This document shows positions 10,072-30,352 of a DNA stretch of 32,000 nucleotides, in pieces. The DNA comes from Mycobacterium shinjukuense. Lineage in GTDB: Bacteria; Actinomycetota; Actinomycetes; Mycobacteriales; Mycobacteriaceae. The stretch covers positions 1,395,640 to 1,427,639 of the forward strand of contig NZ_AP022575.1 in NCBI RefSeq assembly GCF_010730055.1. The letters run 5' to 3'. Positions within the stretch are counted from its first letter, which is position 1. The number at the start of each line of letters is the position of its first letter. Both the position numbers and the translations under genes were made by a program. The notes below the pieces were generated by a model that saw nothing but the letters and a program-made list of their open reading frames with translations, did not search any database and was not told the origin of the DNA.

Positions 10072-11880
10072 TCAACCTCGCGGGGTCAACAGGCGCACGA
10101 AACCGACGGGTGCGGCGAAGCCCTTGAGCGTGACCGTCTCTCGGCGCTGGGGCACCTCGGCCACGATCTGCTGGACCGCGGGATCGGCGGCCACGGCGTG
10201 CGACAGCACGATGTCGTCGCCTGCACTTTGGCCCTGCAGACGCGCGGCCATGTTCACCGTCGAGCCGAAGTAGTCCAGACGGTCGTTCAGCGTCACGACC
10301 ACGCTAGGGCCGGCATGCACGCCTACCTTCAGCACCAGGTCGCTTCCGGAATGCGCCGACGCGGCGATGCCTGCCTGCATGGCGAGCGCCGCGCGGACCG
10401 CTTGCGCCGGATCGGTGAATGCGGCCATGACGGCGTCACCGATGGTCTTGACCACCGCGCCGTCATGGTCTCGCACGATCGCCGCAAGCAGCGTGAAATG
10501 CTCGCGCACCAGGTTATAGGCGGTGGCATCGCCGACGCGTTCGTAGAGTGCGGTCGACCCCCGCAGGTCGGTGAACAGCAGCGCGACCTGGCTGACCCCG
10601 GCATCGTCGCCCGGCCGCAGCGTCGCCTCGGCGAACAAATCGCGAAAGGCCTGCAGCGAGATCGCTTCGGGCGCCGTCAGCGCGCCGCGCACCCAGGTTC
10701 GCTCCTCGACCAAGGCCGCCAGCTCGAAATCGGCATCGTTGACGAATGTGACGCCTCCCGGCGTGTCTTGCCGATCCGCGACGTTGAGCACCTCGACGCC
10801 CGACCCGGTGATGCGCAGGCCCGGAAACGCCCCGGACTCGTACTCGACGTCGACGAAGCCGCCGGGATGGAGTGTGCGTAGGCGATAGGAGCCTGCGGGA
10901 AGGTCGGCGGCCACGGTGCGCCGCTCCCCCGGACTCAGCAGAACCTGTACCGCCACATGTGGCGTCTCCATCGGACCGGACAGGCAGAAACCGCCGCCCG
11001 GCAGCGGGCGCACCATGGGGGCCGGCGCAAACGTCAGCTCGACGTTGCGCTCGAAGTCGCGATCGTAGTCGATGTTGCACGACGAACAGTGCGCGCCGTG
11101 GGGCAGCTCGGCGAGCGTAGGGACGCTGACCTTGGCTCCGCGGCAGTTGGGGCAGAGCACATCCCACTTCATGCCGAGCAGCCCCGCCCGCACGCCGGCG
11201 AGGCAAGCCTCGGTCACCGCGCGCGCGGGCAGGCCCAAATCGGCGGCCAGCGCCTTGGGTCGGAGACGGGTGAGGTCGCTCGCCATGCCCCGCAGCACAA
11301 GGTTGGCGAGCCACCCGCCGAGCCCGTTACCGTAAGGGCTGCGGTCGATTTCGCGTGCCATCGCCGCGGCCCGCTGGCGCGCACCGTAGGGTAGCTCGGG
11401 CTCAGACAACACGAAAGGTGTCAGGCGCTCGGGTGCGCGGTGGCCGCGAGCAAAGGCGGCCGCCTCGACGATGCGCTTTCCCACCGTCTCGCCCGCCCGG
11501 GTGGCTAGCCGCGCGCCGAAGAGGCGGCCGACCAAGCTCAGCGGCTCCCATTCGAGGGCGTAGGTGACGTGTGAGCCCCCTTCGCCGTCCGGCTCGAGAT
11601 CGAACACCGGGCCGAAGCGGCGGAACGGGCCCTTGGCAAACACCCGCGACTGGCGGAAATGCCGTCCCGAGATCCACTCATACGGCTTTTCCTCCCATTC
11701 CACTGTGAACCCCGCCACCGTGCCCCGGCCGCGGCGCAGGACCGTACCGTTGGCTTGCGGTGTCTCCTCGAGTGTGTAGGGCGGCAGCCCGATCGCCTCG
11801 TTGAACCGGTTGGTATCGGCCAGCACCGGCCACAACTCATCCGGCGGCAGGGCGAATGTCCAGGTCCACGTGCGACGCAT
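10072..11880 (-). CDS. Multidomain class III adenylate cyclase (SRPBCC-like N-domain, four-Cys middle region, C-terminal cyclase)
   Basis: C-terminal motifs: LLFTDLRGSTALYE and VVKTIGDAVMAAF (metal-binding Asp residues, Lys typical of adenine specificity) and YFGSTVNMAARLQ (Asn/Arg). The N-terminus WTFALPPDELWPVLADTNRFNEAIG... looks like a Bet v1/SRPBCC fold. CPNC...CSSC at 11077-11154. The start is ATG 11880, or alternatively TTG 11907. Confidence 0.85.
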   Translation of the reverse strand: MRRTWTWTFALPPDELWPVLADTNRFNEAIGLPPYTLEETPQANGTVLRRGRGTVAGFTVEWEEKPYEWISGRHFRQSRVFAKGPFRRFGPVFDLEPDGEGGSHVTYALEWEPLSLVGRLFGARLATRAGETVGKRIVEAAAFARGHRAPERLTPFVLSEPELPYGARQRAAAMAREIDRSPYGNGLGGWLANLVLRGMASDLTRLRPKALAADLGLPARAVTEACLAGVRAGLLGMKWDVLCPNCRGAKVSVPTLAELPHGAHCSSCNIDYDRDFERNVELTFAPAPMVRPLPGGGFCLSGPMETPHVAVQVLLSPGERRTVAADLPAGSYRLRTLHPGGFVDVEYESGAFPGLRITGSGVEVLNVADRQDTPGGVTFVNDADFELAALVEERTWVRGALTAPEAISLQAFRDLFAEATLRPGDDAGVSQVALLFTDLRGSTALYERVGDATAYNLVREHFTLLAAIVRDHDGAVVKTIGDAVMAAFTDPAQAVRAALAMQAGIAASAHSGSDLVLKVGVHAGPSVVVTLNDRLDYFGSTVNMAARLQGQSAGDDIVLSHAVAADPAVQQIVAEVPQRRETVTLKGFAAPVGFVRLLTPRG

Positions 11881-11935
11881 CGCCTCGAACTCTAGACCGG
11901 TGGGCAAACGCCACGTGTCGCGCCGCCAGGGTGGT

Positions 11936-12922: not shown

Positions 12923-13124
12923 GCGGTGGGGATTGGCGAGGACACGTTGCGGCCGGATTCGGGGGATCGGGCCACCATCGGGAAAAGCGCCGATGGTCCC
13001 CTGCGGGCCGCCTGTGACTTACCTGCGGACATTGGCCCAAACGCATGCACGTCGAGTAATCTAGCGGTTGCGGCTGGTTTGCTGGCGTCATTGAGTGTCG
13101 TCGGCATCGAATGGCGGTTCGACA

Positions 13125-13290
13125 GATTCGTCATGAGAGGGAACCCGGTGTGAATCCGGGACTGTCCCGCAGCGGTATGCAGGAACGACCGCCGTCATCG
13201 GCACTGGTCCACGGCCCTGGGACCGGGAAGCGACGGCCAGTAGGAGCGCCGTTTCGGTGTGTGCCTGTGAGTCCGAAGACCTGCCAGCTG
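13125..13290 (+). promoter_or_regulatory. Cobalamin (B12) riboswitch aptamer
   Basis: Conserved blocks in the correct order: GGGAACCCGGTGTGAATCCGGGACTGTCCCGCAGCGGTA, GCACTGG, GGGACCGGGAAG, and the B12 box GAGTCCGAAGACCTGCC (13269-13285). It sits in the 609-bp divergent intergenic region upstream of the PPE2-like gene. Mtb carries a B12 riboswitch in front of PPE2. Confidence 0.85.
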
Positions 13291-13451
13291 CGCCGGGCGC
13301 GGTGTGTCCGGCGCCCGTCGCCTCGCGGATTGGGCGGATGGCCATGAGCTAGCAGCAGGGCGGCGCCGCTGTGGGGGCGCCGCTGATCGGCTCTAGCGGC
13401 TGAACGTCTCCCAGGGCGACCGGGCATTGCCCGTCGTATCGGAGGACGTTG

Positions 13452-13535
13452 ATGGCACCTCATCGAGCCCTCACCGGGAGCTTCCCGGGCATGCGCCGCG
13501 TCAGCCGGTATCTGTTCGCCGGCAGTGATCGATGA
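13452..13535 (+). CDS. 27-codon upstream ORF in the riboswitch expression platform ([27 protein letters not shown])
   Basis: GGAGGA (13441-13446) lies 5 nt before ATG 13452. The stop TGA at 13533-13535 overlaps the PPE ATG at 13532-13534 (ATGA). The PPE start has no Shine-Dalgarno sequence of its own. Confidence 0.55.
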
Positions 13536-15256
13536 CCGCCCCGATCTGGTTGGCATCGCCACCGGAGGTGCATTCGGCGCTGCTGATCAGCGGCCCGGGA
13601 GCCGGTCCGTTGCTGGCGTCTGCGGGCCAGTGGAACTCGCTCAGCGTTGCCTACGCCGAGGCGGCCGACGAGTTGTCCGCCCTGTTGAGCGGCGTGCAAC
13701 TCGGAGCCTGGGAAGGTCCGACCTCGGTGACCTACGTGGCTGCCCACGCGCCGTATCTGGCGTGGCTGATGCAGGCCAGCGCCGATTGCGCCGCGATAGC
13801 CAGTCGACTGGAAACCGCGGCCGCCGCCTACACCGCCGCCCTGGCCGCAATGCCGACCTTGGCTGAGCTGGCCGCCAATCACGCCGCGCACGCGGTGTTG
13901 GTGGCAACCAATTTCTTTGGCGTCAACACGATCCCGATTGCGCTCAACGAGGCCGACTACGTGCGGATGTGGATCCAGGCCGCCACCGTGATGACCACCT
14001 ATCAGGCGGTCTCGACCGCGGCGGTGGCCTCCACACCGCAGGCCATCCCGGCCCCCCAGATCATGAAAGCCGACGCGCAGGCAGCCGCGACCGCAGAGTC
14101 GTTGGCGCTACCGCCCGACCGACAAAACCAGTTCCTGCAATGGTTGCAGGATATCGGGTATATCGACTTCTACAACAACGTCATTCAACCATTAATAAAT
14201 TGGCTGGCGAACATCCCTTTCCTGCAAGCGCTGTTTTCCGGATTTGATCCTTACCTGCTCATTCTCGGTAATCCACTTACCTATCTCAGCCCGCTCAACA
14301 TCGCGTTCGCCCTGGGCTACCCGATGGATATCGGTACCTATGTCGCCTTGCTGTCAGAAACCTTCGCCTTTATCGGGGCAGATCTGGCAGCGGCATTCGC
14401 TTCGGGTAATCCCGCGACCATCGGTCTGACCATTCTGTTCACCACCATCGAAGCCATTGGCACGATCATCACCGATACCATCGCGTTGCTAAAGACCCTG
14501 CTGGAGCAGACTGCGGCGCTGCTCACGGTTGTCGTGCCCCTGCTGACCAGCCCGTTGGCGCCGTTGGCCGCCGGCGCTGTGCTGGCGCCGATCGGCGCCA
14601 AGGGCTTGGCGGCGCTGGTGGCCGTGCCGCCACCGGCGCCAGCCGTCACGGCTCCCGTCACGCCGCCGCTCGCGGCCCTGGCCCCGAGCATCCCGACCTC
14701 TCCCCCGTCGCCGGCACCGACACCCGTGGAGGCGACCGCGCCGGCCCCGGCTCCCGGGCCGCCGGCGCCACCGACCAGCGCACCGCCGTCGGTGACCGGC
14801 GCCGGTGTGGGTGTGGGGATGGAGAGCTACGGCTACCTGGTGAGTGGCCTGAACGCGGATGCCAGGAGGTCCGCAAGCGCCCGCGCCCGAAAGAAGGCGC
14901 CGGAACCCGAAAGCACCGAAATCCCGGCCGTCGCGCCGACGCCGCAGCAGCAGGCTCGACCGCGGCGGCGTAGGCGGGAGAAGGTCGGGCAACTGGACCG
15001 CGGCTACGAGTACATGGATTTGGACTCAGAGGACGCGCCCGACTCGAAGGCGGGCTGGGAGCGGGTCACCGCTGCGGCCGCGTCCGACCAGCGCGGGGGA
15101 AGGCTAGGGTTTGCCGGCATCGCCGGCAAGGCCGGTGCCGCACCGGCAGCCGGGTTGATCACGCTGGCCGGCGATGCGTCCGATGACGGCCGGCGCGTGC
15201 CGCTGACGCCGAGCACCTGGGAGGCCGACCCGGCGCCGCCGGCCGACGACAGCTGA
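13532..15256 (+). CDS. PPE2: PPE family protein, PPE2 (Rv0256c) orthologue-like
   Basis: [28 protein letters not shown]... Long blocks are near-identical to Mtb PPE2 as recalled ([33 protein letters not shown].., [37 protein letters not shown]). A Pro-rich region is present. Basic cluster RPRRRRREK at 14957-14983, followed by [10 protein letters not shown]. Confidence 0.9.
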
Positions 15257-18549: not shown

Positions 18550-20217
18550 TCAATCAAAGATGGTCGTCCCGACGCCGGCGGGGCTGTAGTCGATGTACAC
18601 CCGCCGCGCCGCGAAGGGCAGATACCCGGTGTTCATCAGGCCCGAGGAGATGACCGTTGGGCGGTAATCGTTGGTGTTGAACGAGTACAGCAGATCACCG
18701 CCACTGGTGTAGACCGAAATGTCGGTGTTCGCCGGCAGGGCTCCGGACCCGATCACATACGACGGGATGGTTCCGGTCACGCCGCCGGAATCGATGATCG
18801 AGGGCACGGGGATGGGAGCACCGCCATTGACCGACACGTACAGCGTGGCAATCGGCGCTCCGACAATCTCGACGTCGGGGGCAGGTAGCGGGTTGGGGCC
18901 GAACCGCAGCTCACGGTCGGGGAAGTTGATGAGCACGCCCTCACCGAGGTCGCCCGGCAACGCCATGGTCGGAATGCTGGGCCCCGGGCCCACCGCGTTG
19001 GGCCCGATCCCCAAAACCCCGTCCACACCGGCGGGATCGAAATAGGCCTCGAACGGGGTCGTCGTCGGATTGGCGAAAAACGCCCTGACATATGCCGAAA
19101 CGGCGTACTGCGATGTCGGCAACGAGAACAGCACGACGTTCACACTGGTGGGCCCGGTGGCGATGCCGTTGCCGAAATCCACCGTGGTGGTGTAGGAGGC
19201 GAAGACATAGACCAGGCCCCCGCTGTAGCCGCTGACACTGAGCTCGGTGGGCAGGCCCATGCGCAATATTCCCGGTAGTCCCCCGACGTCTTTGGGTAAG
19301 ACGACAAGACCGGCGGATCCGGTATCAACCAGCACCGGCGTGCTCGGTCCGCCGTTGACCGAGGTGTAGACCACCGGATGAGCGCCGTTGATGATCGGCA
19401 TCGCAACGGTTCTGCCGTCCCCACCCGGGCCACTGACCCCGTGCGGACCCCACAACCAGCCCCCGTGACCTCCAGTGCCGCCAGGGCCACGATTCAACGG
19501 GTTCAACACGTCGTCGAGGCCTCCGGCACCACCCCTGCCGCCCGCACCCAACAGGCCCGCGACACCACCGGGTCCGCCGACCGCACCGGGCATACCGGCG
19601 ACGGTCGACACGCCCCCTTCCCCGCCGGGCCCGGCGTGGCCGAACAGCCAGCCACCGTTACCGCCGGCCCCGCCGGCGGCGTTGGGCCCACCGGCACCCC
19701 CCGCGCCCCCATTGCCGATCAACCCCGCCGCGCCGCCGGCCCCCCCGCCGACCCCCGACACCATTGACGAATAGCCGTTGCCGCCGTTGCCATACAACAG
19801 CCCGCCGGCCCCGCCGTTCGGCCTGGCGGCCGTCCCGGGTGCGCCGTCGCCGATCAGCGGACGCCCTAACAACGCCTGGGTGGGTGTGTTCACCGCGCCC
19901 AGCAGATCGTGCTGCGCCGTCTGCAACTGCGGCGCGATCGCGGCCTCGGTGGCCACATACCATTCGGCCCCGGAATTCAACGCCAGCACGAACTGTTGAT
20001 GAAACGCGCTGGCCTGGGCGCTGAGCGCCTGATACTCCTTGCCGAACCCGGCAAACAGCGCGGCCACCGCCGCCGACACCTCATCGGCGGCGGCCGCCGC
20101 GAGCCCGGTGGTGGGCGCGGCGGCCGCCGCGTTGGCCGCGGTCAGCGCCGAATCGATGTTCGCCAAGGCCGTCGCCGCCGACATCAACGACTCGGGAGCC
20201 ACGACTAGAAGTGACAC
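18550..20217 (-). CDS. PE_PGRS protein with C-terminal aspartic-protease (PecA / PE_PGRS35-type) domain
   Basis: The PE domain MSLLVVAPESLMSAATALANI... has YxxxE (WYVATE). A Gly-Gly-Ala/Asn repeat block is encoded at about 19450-19800. The C-terminal domain carries two catalytic-type motifs, LVDTGSAG (DTGS at 19315-19326) and IIDSGGV (DSGG at 18781-18792). Confidence 0.9.
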   Translation of the reverse strand: MSLLVVAPESLMSAATALANIDSALTAANAAAAAPTTGLAAAAADEVSAAVAALFAGFGKEYQALSAQASAFHQQFVLALNSGAEWYVATEAAIAPQLQTAQHDLLGAVNTPTQALLGRPLIGDGAPGTAARPNGGAGGLLYGNGGNGYSSMVSGVGGGAGGAAGLIGNGGAGGAGGPNAAGGAGGNGGWLFGHAGPGGEGGVSTVAGMPGAVGGPGGVAGLLGAGGRGGAGGLDDVLNPLNRGPGGTGGHGGWLWGPHGVSGPGGDGRTVAMPIINGAHPVVYTSVNGGPSTPVLVDTGSAGLVVLPKDVGGLPGILRMGLPTELSVSGYSGGLVYVFASYTTTVDFGNGIATGPTSVNVVLFSLPTSQYAVSAYVRAFFANPTTTPFEAYFDPAGVDGVLGIGPNAVGPGPSIPTMALPGDLGEGVLINFPDRELRFGPNPLPAPDVEIVGAPIATLYVSVNGGAPIPVPSIIDSGGVTGTIPSYVIGSGALPANTDISVYTSGGDLLYSFNTNDYRPTVISSGLMNTGYLPFAARRVYIDYSPAGVGTTIFD

Positions 20218-24069: not shown

Positions 24070-24933
24070 CTACTTCGCGAGGGTGAATTGGTTGACGTCG
24101 ATGTAGCCGACCCGGAACATCTTGGCGCAGCCGGTCAGGTACTTCAGGTAGCGCTGGTAGACCTCTTCGGATTGAATCCTGATGGCCTCCTCCTGGTGCG
24201 CCTGCAGCGCCGCGGCCCACAAGTCGAGCGTCTTGGCGTAGTGCGGCTGCAGCGACTGGCGGCGGGTCAGCTTGAAACCCGCCTTCGCGGACTGCTCCTG
24301 CACCATCTCGATCGTCGGCGGGTGGCCGCCCGGGAAGATCTCGGTCTGGATGAACTTGAGGAAACGCGCCAGCCACAACGTAAGCGGCAGGCCGGCGTCG
24401 ATCATCTGCTGTCTGGTCAACCCGGTGATGGTGTGCAGCAACAGCACGCCGTCGGCCGGCAGGATCTTGTGGGCCAGCGCGAAGAAGTCGGCGTGACGGT
24501 CGTGGCCGAAATGCTCGAACGCGCCGATCGACACGATCCGGTCGACCGGCTCGTCGAATTGTTCCCAGCCGTTGAGCAGCACCCTTGTGGTGCGTGGACT
24601 GTCCAGCTGGTGTAACAGCGTCTGGACGTGGGCGGCCTGGTTCTTCGACAACGTCAGGCCGATGACGTTGACGTCGTATTTTTCGATCGCGCGGCGCATG
24701 GTGGCGCCCCAGCCGCAGCCGACGTCGAGCAGCGTCATGCCCGGTTGCAGGCCCAGCTTGCCCAGCGCCAGGTCGATCTTGGCGATCTGGGCCTCTTCCA
24801 ACGTCATGTCCTCGCGTTCGAAGTAGGCGCAACTGTAGGTCTGGCTCGGATCCAGGAACAGCCGGAAGAAGTCGTCGGACAAGTCGTAGTGCGCCTGCAC
24901 GTCCGCGAAATGCGGCGTCAGCTCGTTGGCCAT
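24070..24933 (-). CDS. cmaA1: Mycolic acid cyclopropane synthase (SAM-dependent), CmaA1-like
   Basis: From ATG 24933 (287 aa): MANELTPHFADVQAHYDLSDDFFRLFLDPSQTYSCAYFEREDMTLEEAQIAKIDLALGKLGLQPGMTLLDVGCGWGATM... ...YIDVNQFTLAK. Of the CMAS paralogues it is closest to Mtb CmaA1 as recalled. Confidence 0.85.
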   Translation of the reverse strand: MANELTPHFADVQAHYDLSDDFFRLFLDPSQTYSCAYFEREDMTLEEAQIAKIDLALGKLGLQPGMTLLDVGCGWGATMRRAIEKYDVNVIGLTLSKNQAAHVQTLLHQLDSPRTTRVLLNGWEQFDEPVDRIVSIGAFEHFGHDRHADFFALAHKILPADGVLLLHTITGLTRQQMIDAGLPLTLWLARFLKFIQTEIFPGGHPPTIEMVQEQSAKAGFKLTRRQSLQPHYAKTLDLWAAALQAHQEEAIRIQSEEVYQRYLKYLTGCAKMFRVGYIDVNQFTLAK

Positions 24934-25035
24934 GACTTGATGTTCTGCCTTTCCGGACCGACGACCGCTCCAGGGCACCAAACCGCTCCGAGGATATCCC
25001 CGACCGCACCCGGCGCCAATGGCTACCATCATCGC

Positions 25036-25731
25036 GTGCGCGCCTTGCCTACCCGCAAATCGGTTGATGTTGGTGTCGCGGCGGCCTTGGTGGCAGCCGC
25101 TCTTGCCGTCGCTGCCGCCGTGTTACCGCCCGGGACGCCGGGGGCCGCGGGCTCAGCGGCCGCGGCACGGTGTCCGCAGGTGGAGGTCGTGTTCGCTCGC
25201 GGCCGATTCGAATCGCCCGGGCCGGGCATACTCGGCACTGCGTTCATCAACGCGCTCGGCGCCAGGGCTGGGGGTAAGAGCCTCGGCAGCTACGCGGTGA
25301 AGTACCCCGCCGACTCGGAGATCGACCTCGGCGCCAACGACATGAGCCGCCACATTCAGTACATGGTCAACAACTGCCCGGACACCCGCTTGGTGCTGGG
25401 CGGCTACTCGCTCGGTGCCGCGGTCACCGACGTGGTCCTCGCGGTACCGATGTCGGCGTTCGGTTTCGACAGCCCCCTTCCGCCCGGCGCCGACCAACAC
25501 ATCGCGGCCGTGGCGTTGTTCGGCAACGGCAGCCAGTGGGTGGGACCGATTACGAACTTCAACCCGGTGTACAACGACAGGACCATCGAGCTGTGCCACG
25601 GTGCCGATCCCGTCTGCAATCCGGCCGACCCGAACACCTGGAAAGAGAATTGGCCACAACATCTCGCCAATGCCTACGTCCAGGCGGGCATGGCCAACCA
25701 GGCCGCCGACTTCGTCGCCAGCAAGCTGTGA
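25036..25731 (+). CDS. cut2: Secreted cutinase-like protein, Cut2 (Rv2301)-like
   Basis: From GTG 25036 (alternative TTG 25045): signal-like VAAALVAAALAVAAAV. CPQVEVVFARGRFESPGPGILG.., GGYSLGAAVTDVVLAVP, IAAVALFGNGSQWVGPITNFNPVYNDRTIELCHGADPVCNPADPNTWKENWPQHL. Near-colinear with Mtb Cut2 as recalled. Confidence 0.88.
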   Translation: MRALPTRKSVDVGVAAALVAAALAVAAAVLPPGTPGAAGSAAAARCPQVEVVFARGRFESPGPGILGTAFINALGARAGGKSLGSYAVKYPADSEIDLGANDMSRHIQYMVNNCPDTRLVLGGYSLGAAVTDVVLAVPMSAFGFDSPLPPGADQHIAAVALFGNGSQWVGPITNFNPVYNDRTIELCHGADPVCNPADPNTWKENWPQHLANAYVQAGMANQAADFVASKL

Positions 25732-25783
25732 CGCGCCGCTGAGCGAACGGTGCCGTGACGTCGGCGCCGGCCGCATCGACCGA

Positions 25784-25801
25784 GGTGGCGTAATCGCCAC
25801 C
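25784..25801 (+). terminator. Small hairpin GGTGGCG taat CGCCACC downstream of cut2
   Basis: 7-bp perfect stem, 53 nt after the cut2 stop. No U-tract follows; an A-run comes after it instead. Confidence 0.3.
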
Positions 25802-25970
25802 AAGGCCGCGTGACAAAAAATCAAGATGAATATTGGGGAAACGTCAAGTTCAGGACCGCGTGGCCGGATCGGGCTTGTTGCCGCCGTGGACGCCCCTTTC
25901 GTACGGTCTCGGACACGCGAACACATCGACGTGTTCGACCTGGACCCGCGTGTCGCCGAAGGAAACCCCA

Positions 25971-26270
25971 ATGTCGTTCGTCACTGCGTATCCGGAGTTA
26001 CTGTCTGCGGCCGCCAGCAACCTCCAGTCGATCGGCGCCGCGCTGAGCGTCGGCAACGCGACCGCCGCCGGCCCGACCACCTCGGTGGTTCCGGCGGCCG
26101 CCGACGAGGTCTCCGCGCTGACCGCGGCCCGGTTCGCCGCCCATGCCCAGCGGTATCAGGCGCTGAGCGCTCGTGCGGTCGCGATTCACGAGTCGCTGAC
26201 GGCCACCTTGGCGGCCAGTGCGGGATCATACGCCGCCACCGAGGCGGCAAACGCAGCGGCGGCAAATTAG
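25971..26270 (+). CDS. PE family protein (PE-only, 99 aa)
   Basis: ATG 25971 preceded by GAAGGAAA. MSFVTAYPELLSAAASNLQSIGAAL... DEVSALTAARFAAHAQ.YQ... C-terminal YxxxE (SYAATEAA) type VII secretion motif. The track ORF start at 25833 was rejected. Confidence 0.9.
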   Translation: MSFVTAYPELLSAAASNLQSIGAALSVGNATAAGPTTSVVPAAADEVSALTAARFAAHAQRYQALSARAVAIHESLTATLAASAGSYAATEAANAAAAN

Positions 26271-26295
26271 TAGGTTGATCACATAGGTAGCAAAC

Positions 26296-27432
26296 GTGGA
26301 TTACGGAGTACTGCCACCCGAGATCAACTCCGCGCGCATGTATGCGGGTCCGGGGTCGGGCTCCTTGCTGGCCGCTGCGGCGGCCTGGACCGGGCTGGCC
26401 GCCGATCTGCACGCCGCCGCGGCGGGTTATCGATCGGTGATCTCCGGACTGACCAGCGGTCCGTGGCTGGGACCGGCGTCAGCGGCGCTGGTTTCCGCCG
26501 CGGCACCGTATGTGGCCTGGCTGGACAGCAGCGCGGAGCAGGCCGAGTTGGCTGCCAGCCAGGCGGCGGCCGCCGCCGCCGCACACGAGGCCGCGTTCGC
26601 GTTGACGGTGCCCCCACCGGTGATCGCGGCAAACCGCGCCCTGCTGGCGTCGTTGATCGCGACGAACATCTTGGGACAAAACACCGCGGCCATTGCGACC
26701 ACCGAAGCGGAGTACGTCGAGATGTGGGCTCAGGACGCGGCGGCGATGTACGGCTATGCGAGCGCGTCGGCGGCGGCGGCGACGTTGACCGATTTCGAGG
26801 AGCCGGCGGAGGTGACCAACCCGGCCGGGCTGGCTGGCCAGGCCGCCGCCGTCGCCGTCGCCGAGGCTAGTTGCGCCCCAACCGGGGCACCGGAGTTGCC
26901 GGCGGGCGTGCACTCGGCGGTTACCGGCGCGCTCAAGACGCTGGCCGCGCCCTTCTCCAGCAGCCCGATCGACGACCTCATCGCGCTGTACACCAAGTAC
27001 TGCGCGCCGTTCATGCCGGCAGCGACGTCAACGGCGCAGAGCACCAACGCGATCGTGGCCCTGGCGGCGTTCATGAAGGGCCTGGCTCCGGCGGCCGCCT
27101 CCGCGGTCAAGGCCGCCGAAGGCGCGGCCCAGGCGCTGGGTGCGGCCACCTCCGGGATTGCCGGCAAGGGTGCGGGTGTGGCGGCGAGCCTGGGGCGCGC
27201 GCTTCCGCTGGGGGCACTGTCGGTGCCGCCCAGCTGGGCTCCGGTGACCGCCGTGACCAACCCGGCATTGGCGGCGCTGACCAGCGCCGCGGCGGCACCG
27301 GCCGCCGCGGACGGAATCCACCCCGTGCCGATGACCCCGTTTGGGCCGATGTTCGGAAGCCTTGGCGGGCGAAATCTCCCGACCTACGGGTTCAAGCCCG
27401 CGGTGATGGCCCGACCGCCCGCCGCCGGATAA
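26296..27432 (+). CDS. PPE family protein, PPE-SVP subclass
   Basis: (GTG) MDYGVLPPEINSARMYAGPGSGSLL..., WxG (PWLGP), GALSVPPSWA (SVP motif), and a ..RPPAAG C-terminus similar to the PPE18 group. It starts 25 nt after the PE gene, as in a typical PE/PPE operon. Confidence 0.9.
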   Translation: MDYGVLPPEINSARMYAGPGSGSLLAAAAAWTGLAADLHAAAAGYRSVISGLTSGPWLGPASAALVSAAAPYVAWLDSSAEQAELAASQAAAAAAAHEAAFALTVPPPVIAANRALLASLIATNILGQNTAAIATTEAEYVEMWAQDAAAMYGYASASAAAATLTDFEEPAEVTNPAGLAGQAAAVAVAEASCAPTGAPELPAGVHSAVTGALKTLAAPFSSSPIDDLIALYTKYCAPFMPAATSTAQSTNAIVALAAFMKGLAPAAASAVKAAEGAAQALGAATSGIAGKGAGVAASLGRALPLGALSVPPSWAPVTAVTNPALAALTSAAAAPAAADGIHPVPMTPFGPMFGSLGGRNLPTYGFKPAVMARPPAAG

Positions 27433-27459
27433 CGGCATCATTCCAGGACGCCCGGCCAT

Positions 27460-28641
27460 GTGCTGACTACAGTGCGGCCCATGGAGGTCGGACCGTTGAT
27501 CACACCCTATGCCCACCGGTTCGCTGGGCTGCACGCGGGCGTGCACTCGGTTTCGTCGCCGCTGGGTGCGTGGTTGATCCTGGCTCTGGTGGCGCCGGTG
27601 GCCCGAGGTGCGGTCCGCGCGGAAATCGAGGAGATCCTCGGTACCGACGCCCGGCGGGCTCGGCGGGCGCTGGACCACCTGATCGCCGACCCACCCGATG
27701 CCATTCGGGGCGCGCTGGCGGTCTGGGGCCTGGAAACCATGGGGAGTTGGCCCGGTGGTCTGCCCGCGGGGGTTCACACCGGGCCCGTCCCCACCCAGGC
27801 CGACGCCGACGACTGGGCGCGCACTCACTCCGACGGCCTGATCGAGCGGTTCCCGGTCGATGTCACCGGCATGACGGCAGTGTTGGCCAGCGCGCTGGCG
27901 ACCCGCATCGGCTGGGTTCGGCCCTACGACGTCACCGATGCCGCTGAGCTGAACTCCCCCTGGAGCGCGCAGGTTACCGCGGCGCTGACCCTCAGCGGCG
28001 CCGACGGCTATCTCACCGACGTCGCGGAATTAGGCACCGTCGCCGTGCACACCGCGGCCGCCACCGATGCCCTGCAGGTCACCTCGGTGATCGCAAGCAA
28101 AGATGCTGGGTTTGAGGCGGTGCTGGCCGCCGCGCACGACATCGCGCGCCGTGCTGCCACCGGCCGCACGGTGCGTCGGCGTGAACTGTCGGACATGCCG
28201 CTCGGCGACGGCGAGTTTTGGACGATCACCGAGGATCGCCGGCCCGGCGGCGATCACATCCGCGTGGTGTTACCGGCGTGGCACGCGGCCTCGGACCACG
28301 ACTTGACCGTCGATGCGGGCCTTGGCTTCGGAGCCGCCGGCCGCGCGCTGGCGATGGCGGCGTCGGTGCCGCCCGAGATCGCGGCCAGGCAGTCCGCGCT
28401 GGCCCGCTACGGCCGGTGGGGGTTCGAGGCCGCCGCGGTCACCGCGGTCGCGCTGCGCAGTGCCATGGCGACCTCGCGGCGGTCGCGGTCGGCGACGCTG
28501 CGCTTCGGCCACCCCTATGCGGTGGTGGCGGTGGCGCGTGGCCGCCGACGAGACGATCCGTGGGCGGGCGTGCCGGTGTTTGCCGCGTGGGTCGGCGAAC
28601 CGGCCGAGGTTACCTCGATCCCGGCTGCCGCCATTCGCTGA
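27460..28641 (+). CDS. Serpin-family protein (putative protease inhibitor), no obvious signal peptide
   Basis: Serpin landmarks in order: ..VSSPLGAWLILALVAPVARGAVRAEIEEIL.. (SP.S...AL.M...GA.G.T..E), ADDWARTHSDGLIERF (the W....T.G.I pattern), ASALATRIGWVRPYD, hinge WGFEAAAVTAVAL (G.EAAA.T) from 28420, RFGHPYAVVAV (F..d.PF.f.i) and PVFAAWVGEP. The start is GTG 27460 or ATG 27481. Confidence 0.7.
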   Translation: MLTTVRPMEVGPLITPYAHRFAGLHAGVHSVSSPLGAWLILALVAPVARGAVRAEIEEILGTDARRARRALDHLIADPPDAIRGALAVWGLETMGSWPGGLPAGVHTGPVPTQADADDWARTHSDGLIERFPVDVTGMTAVLASALATRIGWVRPYDVTDAAELNSPWSAQVTAALTLSGADGYLTDVAELGTVAVHTAAATDALQVTSVIASKDAGFEAVLAAAHDIARRAATGRTVRRRELSDMPLGDGEFWTITEDRRPGGDHIRVVLPAWHAASDHDLTVDAGLGFGAAGRALAMAASVPPEIAARQSALARYGRWGFEAAAVTAVALRSAMATSRRSRSATLRFGHPYAVVAVARGRRRDDPWAGVPVFAAWVGEPAEVTSIPAAAIR

Positions 28642-29659
28642 GCTTGCGCCCCAACGAGTCGGCGGCGTTCGTGGCGGCCCGCCCCACGCCGTCGACAAAC
28701 CCGCCGAGGCCGTCGCGAATGCCTTTGATCAGCGGGTCGCTGGATTGGTCGAAGCCGTCCTTGTAGTGCCGGGCGGCCGCGCCCAGGTCGTCGGAGAGGG
28801 AGGCCTGGTCATCGTCGGCTCGTCGTGGGTAATCGCCCGACATCACCCGGCCGTAGCCGCCGCCATCCACCCACGTGGTCAACGCGGCGGCCCGCAGCAC
28901 CGAAAACGGGTGGGTCTGCAACTCCAGGTTGAGCAGCTTGAGCAGCCCGTCACGCATGTCGCCCGATTTTTCGTATTCCCGGGCTTGGGCCAAAAACGCT
29001 TCCGAGTCCAGCTTGTTCAGCCGGTTGCCGCCGGCGAGCTTCATCGCCACCCGAAGCGCGGTGTCCAGATCCTGACAGCACAGCAGCCCGGCGCGGTCTC
29101 CGGACAGTTCCGACTTGCGGTGCCATTCCAGCAATGCCGCCACGATCGCCCGCAACGCCCAGCCACCGACCGGCATGAACCCGAACGACCGCGCCACGCG
29201 CAGCAAGTGCATCATCATCGTGCGGTACACCGCGTGACCGGACAGGGCGTGGCCGAGCTCGTGGCCCACCACGAACCGCATCTCGTCGTGTGTCATCAGG
29301 TCATACAGCCCCGAGGTGACCACGATGAACGGCCGGTCCATCCCGATCGTGTAGGCATCCGCGATCGGCGACTGGGTGACGAACAGCTCGGGTCTCGCCG
29401 GCGCGTCCAGGACGTCGATGCACTCGTTGAGCAGCTCGTCGAGGTCGGCGAATTGGCGTGGTCCGACGCGTGCCGCGCTGGCCAGGTAGAGCAGCCGGTG
29501 CTGGCGCTCCCGCAGCATCCCCGACAGCAACTTCAGCACCTGGTCGAAGCCCTTGAGCCGACGCAACGCCGATAGGGCGGTCCGGTCGGCGGGGTGCTCC
29601 CACGCGCTCGAGCTGATCCCGGGGAACACGGTGCGGGCGGTGGCGGGTACCTGAGACAT
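28610..29659 (-). CDS. M48-family Zn metalloprotease (HtpX/Ste24-like soluble type), Rv1977-like
   Basis: HELGH zinc motif at 29249-29263 (VVGHELGHALSGH) with downstream SELSGDRAG (third ligand Glu). 349 aa. Its 3' end overlaps the serpin 3' end by 32 nt. Confidence 0.85.
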   Translation of the reverse strand: MSQVPATARTVFPGISSSAWEHPADRTALSALRRLKGFDQVLKLLSGMLRERQHRLLYLASAARVGPRQFADLDELLNECIDVLDAPARPELFVTQSPIADAYTIGMDRPFIVVTSGLYDLMTHDEMRFVVGHELGHALSGHAVYRTMMMHLLRVARSFGFMPVGGWALRAIVAALLEWHRKSELSGDRAGLLCCQDLDTALRVAMKLAGGNRLNKLDSEAFLAQAREYEKSGDMRDGLLKLLNLELQTHPFSVLRAAALTTWVDGGGYGRVMSGDYPRRADDDQASLSDDLGAAARHYKDGFDQSSDPLIKGIRDGLGGFVDGVGRAATNAADSLGRKLSEWRQPGSR

Positions 29660-29691
29660 GGCGCGCTCCCCTCGATAGAAGCCAACCTTTA

Positions 29692-29721
29692 CACTACGCC
29701 AGCGTTACTATTCCCGTAGTG
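29692..29721. promoter_or_regulatory. Inverted repeat CACTACG N16 CGTAGTG in the divergent M48 / TetR intergenic region (TetR operator candidate)
   Basis: 7-bp perfect arms at 29692-29698 and 29715-29721, within the 87-bp intergenic region. Confidence 0.4.
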
Positions 29722-29746
29722 ATACGCCGATGGTGGGAGTAATAGG

Positions 29747-30352
29747 GTGCCACCGAGCAATCAGCAACGGCGCGACAAGCTTGTCGACGCCGCCATTGAG
29801 ATCGTGGCCGAACACGGCCTGCATGGCCTCTCGCACCGTGCGGTGGACGAGGCGGCCGTGGTACCGCGGGGCACCACGTCCAATTACTTTCGTTCCCGCG
29901 AAGCGCTGGTGGCTGCCACGGTTGCGCGCATCGTCGATCTTCACTTCGCGTTGATCGCCGAGCTACGGACCCGGCACGCGGGCAACGGTGTCACCGTCGC
30001 CGACTTTCTCGGCGACGTGGTCGAGCACGCCCTGACGCGCTTTCCCGGGCGTTACCTCGCGATGCTCGAGCTGGCGCTGGAGTGCGCCCGAAAGCCCGAA
30101 TTGCGTCGGGAGCTTGACCGCATTTCCGAAAACGCCATGAGGCTCACGCATGAGGCGCACCGTGTCAACGGCGGCGAACCGTCGCGGCACGACGTGGAGC
30201 TGCTCGGCGCGTTCTACCACGGGGTGCTGTTCACCTCGCTGGTCATGCCCCAAACGCTGGGCGGTCGCAGCCCCGGGGAGATCACGCGAACCATGATCGA
30301 CAAGGTTCTTCGACCCGGCGCCGCCGCGCCACCCCCCATGACTTGTGCATGA
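29747..30352 (+). CDS. TetR-family transcriptional regulator
   Basis: (GTG) MPPSNQQRRDKLVDAAIEIVAEHGLHGLSHRAVDEAAVVPRGTTSNYFRSREALV... is the canonical TetR HTH. Confidence 0.9.
   Translation: MPPSNQQRRDKLVDAAIEIVAEHGLHGLSHRAVDEAAVVPRGTTSNYFRSREALVAATVARIVDLHFALIAELRTRHAGNGVTVADFLGDVVEHALTRFPGRYLAMLELALECARKPELRRELDRISENAMRLTHEAHRVNGGEPSRHDVELLGAFYHGVLFTSLVMPQTLGGRSPGEITRTMIDKVLRPGAAAPPPMTCA

Follow-up and report, generated by a model that had tools for sequence, protein, structure and literature searches.

A divergent serpin-fold gene of Mycobacterium shinjukuense belongs to a large actinobacterial family without signal peptides

Gene content and coordinates of the locus

The window, a 32,000-nucleotide stretch of the M. 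shinjukuense genome, carries on its forward strand a gene with a cutinase domain, a PE/PPE pair and a gene for a predicted serpin, the last converging with a gene for an M48 metalloprotease with an HELGH motif (Table 1). The preliminary description of this DNA had reported the serpin after an SVP-type PE/PPE pair, the convergent M48 gene and a PecA-type PE_PGRS about 8 kb upstream, all of which are borne out by domain matches; the coordinates also confirm the 32-nt overlap of the serpin and M48 3' ends (28610-28641). This overlap is particular to the M. shinjukuense genome; in its relatives the two ends lie 7 nt apart or overlap by 4 nt. The 27-nt spacing also reported holds between the PPE stop (27432) and the GTG codon at 27460 on the same strand, but a downstream ATG is the likelier start because the M[DE][IV]G.L N-termini of homologues align there. 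The serpin is thus likely to be a 386-residue product separated from the PPE gene by 48 nt; residue numbers below follow the 393-residue form read from the GTG. The coding frame is genuine, with a GC3 of 0.84 (vs 0.79-0.88 for neighbouring genes and 0.61-0.74 for overlapping alternative reading frames) and with hundreds of homologues.

Table 1. Features of the serpin locus (window positions; residues in 393-residue numbering).
Feature	Position	Strand	Evidence and remarks
PecA-type PE_PGRS	18550-20217	-	PF20729, 4e-97; 7-9 kb upstream of the serpin
Cutinase domain of upstream gene	25171-25731	+	PF01083, 6.5e-43; context
PE gene	25971-26270	+	PF00934, 7.3e-30; context, no functional tie to the serpin
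PPE gene, SVP subfamily	26296-27432	+	PF00823, 9.9e-66; PF12484 (PPE-SVP), 3e-15
Alternative upstream start of serpin-fold gene	GTG 27460	+	393 aa; reading frame 27460-28641
Predicted serpin-fold gene	27481-28641	+	386 aa from ATG 27481; start from homologue N-termini
Hinge G321-F-E-A-A-A-V-T328 (P15-P8)	28420-28443	+	Conserved in homologues; aligned to conserpin GTEAAAAT
Distal reactive-centre loop A329-S342, AVALRSAMATSRRS	28444-28485	+	Sequence and length differ among family members
R343-S-A-T-L-R-F-G-H-P-Y353: Arg, strand s1C, FGHPY block	28486-28518	+	Conservation
M48 metalloprotease gene (HELGH)	28610-29659	-	PF01435, 2.3e-33; convergent to the serpin

Serpin identity and family distribution

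Searched alone, the M. shinjukuense protein scores 14.4 bits against the serpin profile PF00079 (E=0.023, with a match limited to residues 31-65), below the curated gathering cut-off of 27 bits, but 25 of 27 homologues match it at E<=0.01 (best 5.6e-9), and family profiles match PDB serpins (tengpin, PAI-1, conserpin, thermopin) with E-values of 4e-8 to 3.9e-12. Serpin homology thus holds at profile level, since homologues and family profiles match where the single sequence misses. AlphaFold models based on alignments of 27 and 146 sequences (pLDDT 85.2, and pLDDT 92.3 with pTM 0.90, respectively) contain helices A-I and sheets A, B and C in canonical serpin order. Foldseek searches of the PDB with these models gave 372-390 matches at E<=0.001, and all of the 50 matches listed per run were serpins (best E 8e-18 and 2e-15; sequence identity 10-17%, TM-scores about 0.6). 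Profile searches, modelling and structural comparison therefore agree with the serpin fold claimed previously, the Pfam match standing for the family and failing for the M. shinjukuense sequence itself, and the gene product is a serpin-fold protein.

The family comprises 589 representative clusters at E<=1e-30 and 463 loci among species genomes. Its size is put at roughly 600-1100 sequence clusters, spread across Actinomycetota, and it is almost wholly actinobacterial, with a near-invariant hinge. Its members include environmental and pathogenic mycobacteria (M. marinum, M. szulgai, the M. kansasii complex). Among the best 80 of the 463 loci, a pattern-based scan found no M. tuberculosis orthologue, and the serpin appears to be absent from that species; nor was Streptomyces represented among these 80.

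No signal peptide was found in the M. shinjukuense protein, as had been noted before, helix A beginning at about residue 11. The same holds family-wide, as judged from the spacing of an SPLGxW motif, the start of helix A and N-terminal hydrophobicity: in 174 of 218 sequences the N-terminus and the motif are only 25-34 residues apart, leaving no room for such a peptide, and the longer N-termini of the remaining members are not hydrophobic and have no hydrophobic core. Neither the signal peptide nor the lipobox of secreted bacterial serpins of the miropin/siropin type was seen in the family, and a cytoplasmic location may be inferred. To our knowledge, serpins are scarce in bacteria, the handful characterised so far are all near-canonical, and the ones whose biological role is known are secreted proteins. 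The M. shinjukuense gene belongs to a large, uncharacterised actinobacterial serpin family that falls outside this pattern, with its missing signal peptide, fixed atypical hinge and long loop.

The closest comparisons are with the characterised bacterial inhibitory serpins thermopin of Thermobifida fusca, also actinobacterial, and tengpin of Thermoanaerobacter tengcongensis, which have the same fold and are the best or near-best profile and structural matches (tengpin 2pef, 4e-8 to 5e-11; thermopin 1sng/1mtp, 1e-5 to 3e-7). Both clear the PF00079 cut-off with ease, and their ExGTEAAA hinges and loop lengths are canonical, whereas the M. shinjukuense serpin differs from them at P17 and P14 and has a loop longer by at least 6 residues. 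Intracellular housekeeping serpins have been proposed for prokaryotes (PMC8233489), and the 'hub-like' prokaryotic and archaeal serpins discussed there (Pnserpin, Tk-serpin), for which control of cytoplasmic proteolysis was suggested, share with this family the lack of a signal peptide. These two have an ExGTEAAAA hinge and stay near the consensus of the superfamily, whereas the present family is a sequence outlier.

Hinge, loop and conformational state

The hinge consensus of inhibitory serpins is E-x-G-T/S-E-A-A-A-x-T (P17-P8). The corresponding GFEAAAVT is invariant in 27 homologues and near-invariant in 255 sequences (G321 in 251, F322 in 253, A324 in 251, A325 and A326 in 243 each, T328 in 218), and is followed in the reading frame by LRSAMATSRRSRSATLR, then FGHPY, then PVFAAWVGEP, an order and placement already reported. 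The label of an inhibitory-type hinge fits at P15, P13, P12-P10 and P8 but not at P17, which is Arg rather than Glu (Arg in 198/255), nor at P14, where a Phe found in all but two of the aligned sequences stands in place of Thr/Ser.

The loop is also unusual. In alpha-1-antitrypsin 25 residues separate G(P15) from the Pro that corresponds to that of FGHP, against which the 31 residues of the M. shinjukuense serpin amount to an extension of 6, as originally estimated. Across the family the distance (to the Pro of FxxP) is 31-38 residues, i.e. 6-13 above canonical length with a minimum of +6. The distal loop (329-342) has a pLDDT below 50 in both models; beyond it R343, F349 and P352 are kept in 249, 244 and 247 of the 255 sequences, and residues 343-348 form a strand in the 146-sequence model. 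By the P15+14 ruler, P1 and P1' would be A335 and M336, and residues 337-342 (ATSRRS) make up the 6-residue extra segment. Mycobacterial orthologues keep P7-P1' (AVALR[SG]AM) and vary only in the next six residues, so that in mycobacteria the extra residues would lie past the predicted P1', an arrangement that would be compatible with inhibition. A near-invariant P15-P8 beside a segment free to vary in sequence and length, with P7-P1' retained just where the ruler sets the scissile bond, is a pattern like that of inhibitors.

The conserved set of shutter and breach residues of inhibitory serpins was not found in an HMM alignment of the family with conserpin and PAI-1. S53 and W194 (alpha-1-antitrypsin numbering) are retained, and S56 is replaced by Gly, N186 by Ser, H334 by Gln (252/255), E342 by Arg and K290 by Ala, frequencies being drawn from the 255 sequences. 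These replacements run through the whole family, and several of them, like those at P17 and P14, affect residues considered to matter for metastability and inhibition.

In both AlphaFold models strand s5A is followed by a 3-residue turn and the hinge then runs as a strand of sheet A (pLDDT about 89-93), with s1C still formed. In the Foldseek searches serpins in cleaved or latent form rank highest, native forms scoring worse with an rmsd of about 12 Å, and the models are nearer to six-stranded sheet-A states (PAI-1 in its latent 1c5g and cleaved 3cvm forms, latent conserpin 5cdz, cleaved CBG 4c49, and hinge-preinserted native antithrombin) than to native ones. Such conformers come about through cleavage or when s1C is extracted, whereas here an intact chain is predicted to keep s1C (343-348) because its loop is longer. 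This relaxed-like placement of the hinge is unusual, since AlphaFold reportedly forces serpins to adopt their native state (PMC11226102).

A possible parallel is a diverged clade of Group U serpins described from Streptomyces by Spence et al. (2021, PMC8233489), which resembles this family in being actinobacterial and highly diverged, in deviating at breach and shutter with most of the hinge motif kept, and in being possibly non-inhibitory. The passage on that clade makes no mention of a long loop, of Phe at P14, of Arg at P17 or of missing signal peptides.

Gene neighbourhood and possible function

The position of the serpin is not conserved. PE, PPE and M48 genes were near the serpin in none of 71 non-mycobacterial loci (from the best 80 of 463), and PPE lay directly upstream of it in none of 9 other mycobacterial loci. 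Where a PE/PPE pair is present, in 6-7 mycobacterial loci, 2-3.6 kb separate it from the serpin downstream, whose immediate upstream neighbour is a GH16 gene. A cutinase gene takes that place, and PE/PPE is missing, in M. marinum, M. persicum, M. ostraviense and M. innocens. By this gene order, the PPE gene was inserted between cutinase and serpin in the M. shinjukuense lineage. Adjacency to M48 is confined to Mycobacterium among the loci examined, the M48 gene being full-length, convergent and 85-88% identical in 8 of them and reduced to a 48-residue fragment in another (L004). The serpin itself is only about 70% identical to its orthologues. In two species, M. ostraviense and M. innocens, frameshift or deletion has turned it into a pseudogene, with M48 intact and 88% identical. 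The placement of the serpin after a PE/PPE pair and against M48 is best explained by rearrangement of a locus that varies among mycobacteria rather than by a functional unit.

The preliminary description had suggested that the serpin may be linked with the export or processing of PE/PPE proteins, or with the protease next to it. Such coupling, whether to mycosins or PecA, by co-secretion through ESX or by regulation of M48, could draw on the 27-48 nt between PPE and serpin on one strand, on convergence with M48 in 8/8 mycobacterial loci with a full-length copy and on the nearby PecA-type PE_PGRS, but it is largely refuted by the neighbourhoods just described, and we regard it as very improbable. 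PE/PPE adjoins the serpin in no other examined locus, the family is present in hundreds of actinobacteria lacking PE/PPE genes altogether, M48 outlives the serpin where the latter has decayed, and the protein has no secretion signal. Moreover, serpins trap an acyl-enzyme, so that metalloproteases such as M48 and aspartic proteases such as PecA are not targets. The practical conclusion for the biology of mycobacteria is a negative one, nothing having been found at these loci that ties the serpin to PE/PPE or ESX. It is also unlikely, if less so, that the gene is a dispensable remnant on its way to loss in M. shinjukuense: its weak Pfam score relative to those of relatives, the frameshifted or deleted orthologues, the missing M. 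tuberculosis orthologue among the best 80 loci and the identity lower than that of M48 would fit, but the frame is intact with neighbour-like GC3, all family-invariant residues are kept and the AlphaFold model is very confident.

We favour, at roughly even odds, an intact cytoplasmic serpin of a large divergent, almost exclusively actinobacterial clade that works like other serpins and whose position at this locus is incidental. A serine or cysteine protease would attack the variable distal loop, at about LRSA|M by the ruler, upon which the Ala-rich hinge would insert fully into sheet A and the protease be trapped or sensed; its target would probably be a protease of the cytoplasm, either endogenous or invading. 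A scan of the neighbourhoods found no candidate partner, and no protease recurs beside family members among the loci examined. If the family is inhibitory, it would represent an unrecognised control of cytoplasmic proteolysis in actinobacteria. Alternatively, and more tentatively, the protein may have the serpin fold but be non-inhibitory or under allosteric control, with an uncleaved ground state that already holds the hinge (about P15-P9/P6) in sheet A, the 6-13 extra residues letting s1C stay, so that the hinge would be a core strand and not a mobile element. Its role would then be in binding, as a scaffold or chaperone-like, or as a ligand-activated cytoplasmic inhibitor with the hinge expelled as in antithrombin. 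The hinge strand after s5A with s1C formed in both AlphaFold runs, the Foldseek ranking of relaxed above native serpins, the bulky P14 Phe (253/255), which suits permanent burial, the shutter and breach substitutions and the minimum extension of 6 all point this way, as do the usual AlphaFold preference for native serpins (PMC11226102) and the suggestion that a diverged actinobacterial (Streptomyces) clade with breach and shutter changes is non-inhibitory (PMC8233489). With a loop-inserted ground state of this kind, the family would offer a case from nature in which the serpin fold has escaped metastability. However, AlphaFold is not trustworthy for choosing between serpin conformers, small residues at P12-P9 with Thr at P8 are the signature of loop-inserting inhibitory serpins, and a conserved P7-P1' followed by a free segment in mycobacteria looks like a recognition site.

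Several observations sit less easily with the favoured reading of a working cytoplasmic serpin. The P17, P14, shutter and breach substitutions, the long loop, the relaxed-like models, the suggested lack of inhibition in the diverged Streptomyces clade, the failure to find a partner protease and the decay of the gene in two related species all weigh against it.

Serpin identity, gene limits and family

At the level of sequence profile and predicted fold the product of ORF 27460-28641 is a serpin and, given that its structural matches share only 10-17% identity, a very divergent one. Taken alone, the protein falls below the cut-off of the Pfam serpin model PF00079 (14.4 bits, E=0.023, cut-off 27), but 25 of the 27 aligned family members match it at E≤0.01 (best 5.6e-9). 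Searches with the single sequence yielded no match to PDB sequences with phmmer at E≤1 and none in NCBIfam at E≤10, and PADLOC defence models matched none of the serpin, M48 and TetR genes. A profile of 27 sequences retrieved tengpin (4e-8), PAI-1 and thermopin from the PDB; one of 146 sequences reached 3.9e-12 for PAI-1 and about 5e-11 for both conserpin and tengpin, and aligned the C-terminal hinge with KEGTEAAAAT of conserpin. An hhalign comparison of the family with one alpha-1-antitrypsin sequence, which serves as a consistency check only, gave no more than a 52-column match over strand s3A with a probability of 11%.

AlphaFold2 models were obtained with 27 sequences (pLDDT 85.2, pTM 0.81) and with 146 (pLDDT 92.3, pTM 0.90, all five models at least 90), and in both runs all serpin helices and strands appear in canonical order. 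Among the Foldseek matches listed from the PDB there were serpins only (E to 8e-18, TM about 0.6). Together with the profile matches, these models bear out the preliminary description of a bacterial serpin, and its hinge is nearly invariant in 255 sequences. Members of the family are already labelled as serpins in public databases, though uncharacterised: many of the 895 relatives in a first database search carry precomputed PF00079 matches, and for a few the NCBI or UniRef name reads “serpin family protein” or “Serpin domain-containing protein”.

The sequence landmarks stand in the correct order, as originally described, and run from the SPLGAW block through the hinge and the Arg/Ser-rich stretch to FGHPY and PVFAAWVGEP (table). 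That the ORF is the coding frame is shown by its GC3 (0.84), which is like that of neighbouring genes and exceeds that of overlapping alternative ORFs (0.61-0.74). Homologues begin with M[DE][IV]G.L, the counterpart of which in the window is ATG 27481, so that the product probably has 386 residues (381 in its database record) and lies 48 nt from the PPE gene; the 27-nt gap first reported holds for the GTG start. The 32-nt overlap between the 3′ ends of the serpin and M48 genes is correct for the annotated stops. A promoter and terminator scan of 25700-29900 gave nothing beyond shuffled expectation. No family member has room for a signal peptide or the hydrophobic core of one, in agreement with the earlier reading of the serpin itself.

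Features of the serpin and of the surrounding DNA (nucleotides of the window; residues of the 393-aa version from GTG 27460)
Feature	Position	Strand	Remarks
SPLGAW block	N-terminal part of serpin ORF	+	
LASALATRIGW	serpin ORF	+	s3A block
Hinge G321-FEAAAVT-328	28420-28443	+	P15-P8
Arg/Ser-rich stretch LRSAMATSRRSRSATLR	between hinge and FGHPY	+	
G321			kept in 251/255 sequences
F322			253/255
E323			185/255
A324			251/255
A325, A326			243/255 each
T328			218/255, plus 24 Ser
R343			249/255
F349			244/255
P352			247/255
PE gene	25971-26270		
PPE gene, SVP subfamily	26296-27432		
M48 peptidase with HELGH	28610-29659		convergent to serpin
PecA-type PE_PGRS, C-terminal aspartyl-peptidase-like domain	18550-20217	-	PF20729, 4e-97
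Cobalamin riboswitch, full-length	13085-13302	+	RF00174, 81 bits, E=9e-19
PPE gene, PPW subfamily	13532-15256	+	
Candidate gene, 271 aa	6536-7351	+	no Pfam match at E≤0.001
Candidate gene, 334 aa	20205-21209	-	no Pfam match at E≤0.001
Adenylate/guanylate cyclase, multidomain	10072-11907	-	DUF5939
Cutinase, longest ORF	24628-25731	+	
Mycolic-acid cyclopropane synthase	24070-25032	-	

Searched exhaustively with a profile, 1.84 billion representative proteins yielded 589 matches at E≤1e-30; the number rose to 1109 at E≤1e-10 and to 3024 at E≤0.001, the weakest tier presumably including canonical serpins. With one genome per species, relatives are encoded at 463 loci, the best 80 of which are almost all from Actinomycetota (Mycobacterium, Micromonospora, Actinoplanes, Streptosporangiaceae, Jatrophihabitantaceae, Dermacoccaceae, Frankiaceae, Pseudonocardiales and Cryptosporangium among them), with two from Acidimicrobiia and one (L074, 45% identical) from a MAG labelled Burkholderiales, a non-actinobacterial assignment that could reflect a binning error or horizontal transfer. 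Some genomes hold two or more paralogues, occasionally less than 5 kb apart; two loci (L010 and L053) come from one MAG, MFD02159.bin.2.55, and at seven loci a second member lies upstream on the same strand. Five proteins are well beyond the usual length of about 390 residues (P0066, 621; P0175, 545; P0205, 703; P0219, 763; P0258, 611) and may be fusions or gene-calling run-ons; PF01169 is found in P0066, and in P0175 a hydrophobic N-terminal segment precedes the serpin part by about 130 residues.

Hinge, reactive loop and predicted conformation

The hinge, first recognised by its match to the inhibitory consensus, is conserved in homologues (table), whereas both the sequence and the length of residues 329-342 differ between members. 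From the P15 Gly to the Pro of FxxP the family spans 31-38 residues, against 25 in alpha-1-antitrypsin. Mycobacterial orthologues retain GFEAAAVTAVALR[SG]AM, the stretch that the canonical ruler assigns to P15 through P1′, followed by six freely varying residues and SR[ST]ATLRFGHPY; ATSRRS of the window is species-specific. As variation starts after P1′, the six extra loop residues would sit at P2′-P7′. R343 was rejected as the primary reading of P1: it stands 22 residues beyond P15, and loop-length studies have established that serpins become substrates once more than about 2 residues are added on the P side. A structural anchor is the likelier role for R343, which in the alignment falls immediately ahead of strand s1C.

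When the family is aligned by HMM with conserpin and PAI-1, S53, P54, W194, P15, P13, P12-P10 and P8 prove to be kept (alpha-1-antitrypsin numbering). It departs from inhibitory serpins in having Arg instead of Glu at P17 and Phe instead of Thr at P14, and in the replacement of S56 by Gly, N186 by Ser, H334 by Gln (252/255) and K290 by Ala. The closest description in print is that of a highly diverged actinobacterial (Streptomyces) clade in Group U of Spence et al. 2021, presented there as deviating in breach and shutter, retaining the hinge and possibly non-inhibitory (PMC8233489).

The hinge is modelled in both AlphaFold runs as a beta-strand, three residues beyond s5A (run 1, residues 321-330; run 2, 321-327; pLDDT about 89-93), followed by a low-confidence loop and an intact s1C from R343. 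Consistent with this, cleaved or latent serpins head the Foldseek matches (cleaved PAI-1 3cvm, cleaved CBG 4c49, latent PAI-1 1c5g, latent conserpin 5cdz and latent “L” chains of antithrombin), with the native structures 1sng, 6gwq and 1oc0 ranking lower (rmsd about 12 Å). Such a relaxed-like result is unusual, because AlphaFold was found in a published test to push serpins to the native state even where experiment shows relaxed forms (PMC11226102); for the window protein the relaxed-like state is a prediction. The predicted pre-insertion of the hinge as far as about P9 fits coherently with the longer return loop and with the invariant Phe, of a buried type, at P14. It is this family-wide atypical hinge, with the long loop and the relaxed-like prediction, that makes the protein of interest.

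Genomic neighbourhood and possible function

We favour, at a probability of about 0.5, a cytoplasmic suicide-substrate inhibitor or sensor of a serine or cysteine protease, whose P1 would by the canonical ruler lie near A335/M336. The pre-inserted picture would suit either a non-inhibitory protein or an inhibitor with partial pre-insertion of the hinge, as in antithrombin. Possible but less likely than the favoured reading is a protein of serpin fold whose hinge is inserted constitutively or in part and which is non-inhibitory or controlled by a ligand. Gene decay is unlikely for the window, where the frame is open with GC3 like its neighbours; the serpin of M. innocens (L079 1718-2893) has two frameshifts, and that of M. 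ostraviense (L022 6001-6774) a frameshift and a loss of about 130 codons (roughly residues 70-198), both beside an intact M48 gene (about 88% identical).

The flanking PE, PPE-SVP and convergent HELGH M48 genes and the PecA-type PE_PGRS gene upstream are present as first described, but the functional link to PE/PPE, ESX or M48 then proposed is not supported, because the neighbourhood differs in relatives; as an explanation it is highly improbable. Tblastn against the best 80 of the 463 loci found full-length M48 in 8 mycobacterial loci only (always convergent, 85-88% identical), a 48-residue fragment in a ninth (L004) and none in the other 71, and PE and PPE in only 6-7 mycobacterial loci. The order is (cutinase)-PE-PPE-...-GH16-serpin-M48 in M. 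szulgai, M. intermedium, Mycobacterium sp. TY814 (L005), a MAG of an uncultured actinomycetote (L007) and M. gordonae, cutinase-serpin-M48-...-GH16 in M. marinum, M. persicum, M. ostraviense and M. innocens, and cutinase-PE-PPE-serpin-M48-TetR-GH16 in the window, the only one of the compared mycobacterial loci in which PPE immediately precedes the serpin. In five loci a 7-nt gap separates the serpin stop from the M48 stop, and in two there is an overlap of 4 nt; the longer overlap in the window is due to a slightly longer serpin C-terminus. Moreover, M48 (metallo) and PecA (aspartic) proteases form no acyl-enzyme intermediate of the kind that serpins trap.

De novo clustering of ORFs less than 5 kb from the gene in the 80 loci revealed no recurrent protease neighbour. 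The commonest real neighbour is an MFS transporter (21/80), and others are lineage-specific (ABC ATPase, PLP decarboxylase, NUDIX, PhzF, aquaporin, quinone oxidoreductase; a luciferase-like gene and NRPS in Micromonospora; an ankyrin-repeat gene in Allobranchiibius). The adjacent cutinase was rejected as a target, being a secreted esterase rather than a peptidase, with adjacency that is not conserved. Nothing was seen that would connect the PE_PGRS gene with the serpin.

Other features of the window

The cobalamin riboswitch lies about 230 nt upstream of the PPW-type PPE gene, an arrangement reminiscent of PPE2 in M. tuberculosis, which is preceded by a B12 riboswitch. At its N-terminus the cyclase has a region resembling SRPBCC (PF10604, below cut-off). 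The cyclopropane synthase gene is overlapped, on the other strand, by the longest cutinase ORF; in that ORF the cutinase domain begins only at residue 182 and a signal-peptide-like stretch lies around residue 150, and the true cutinase start is probably near 25060.
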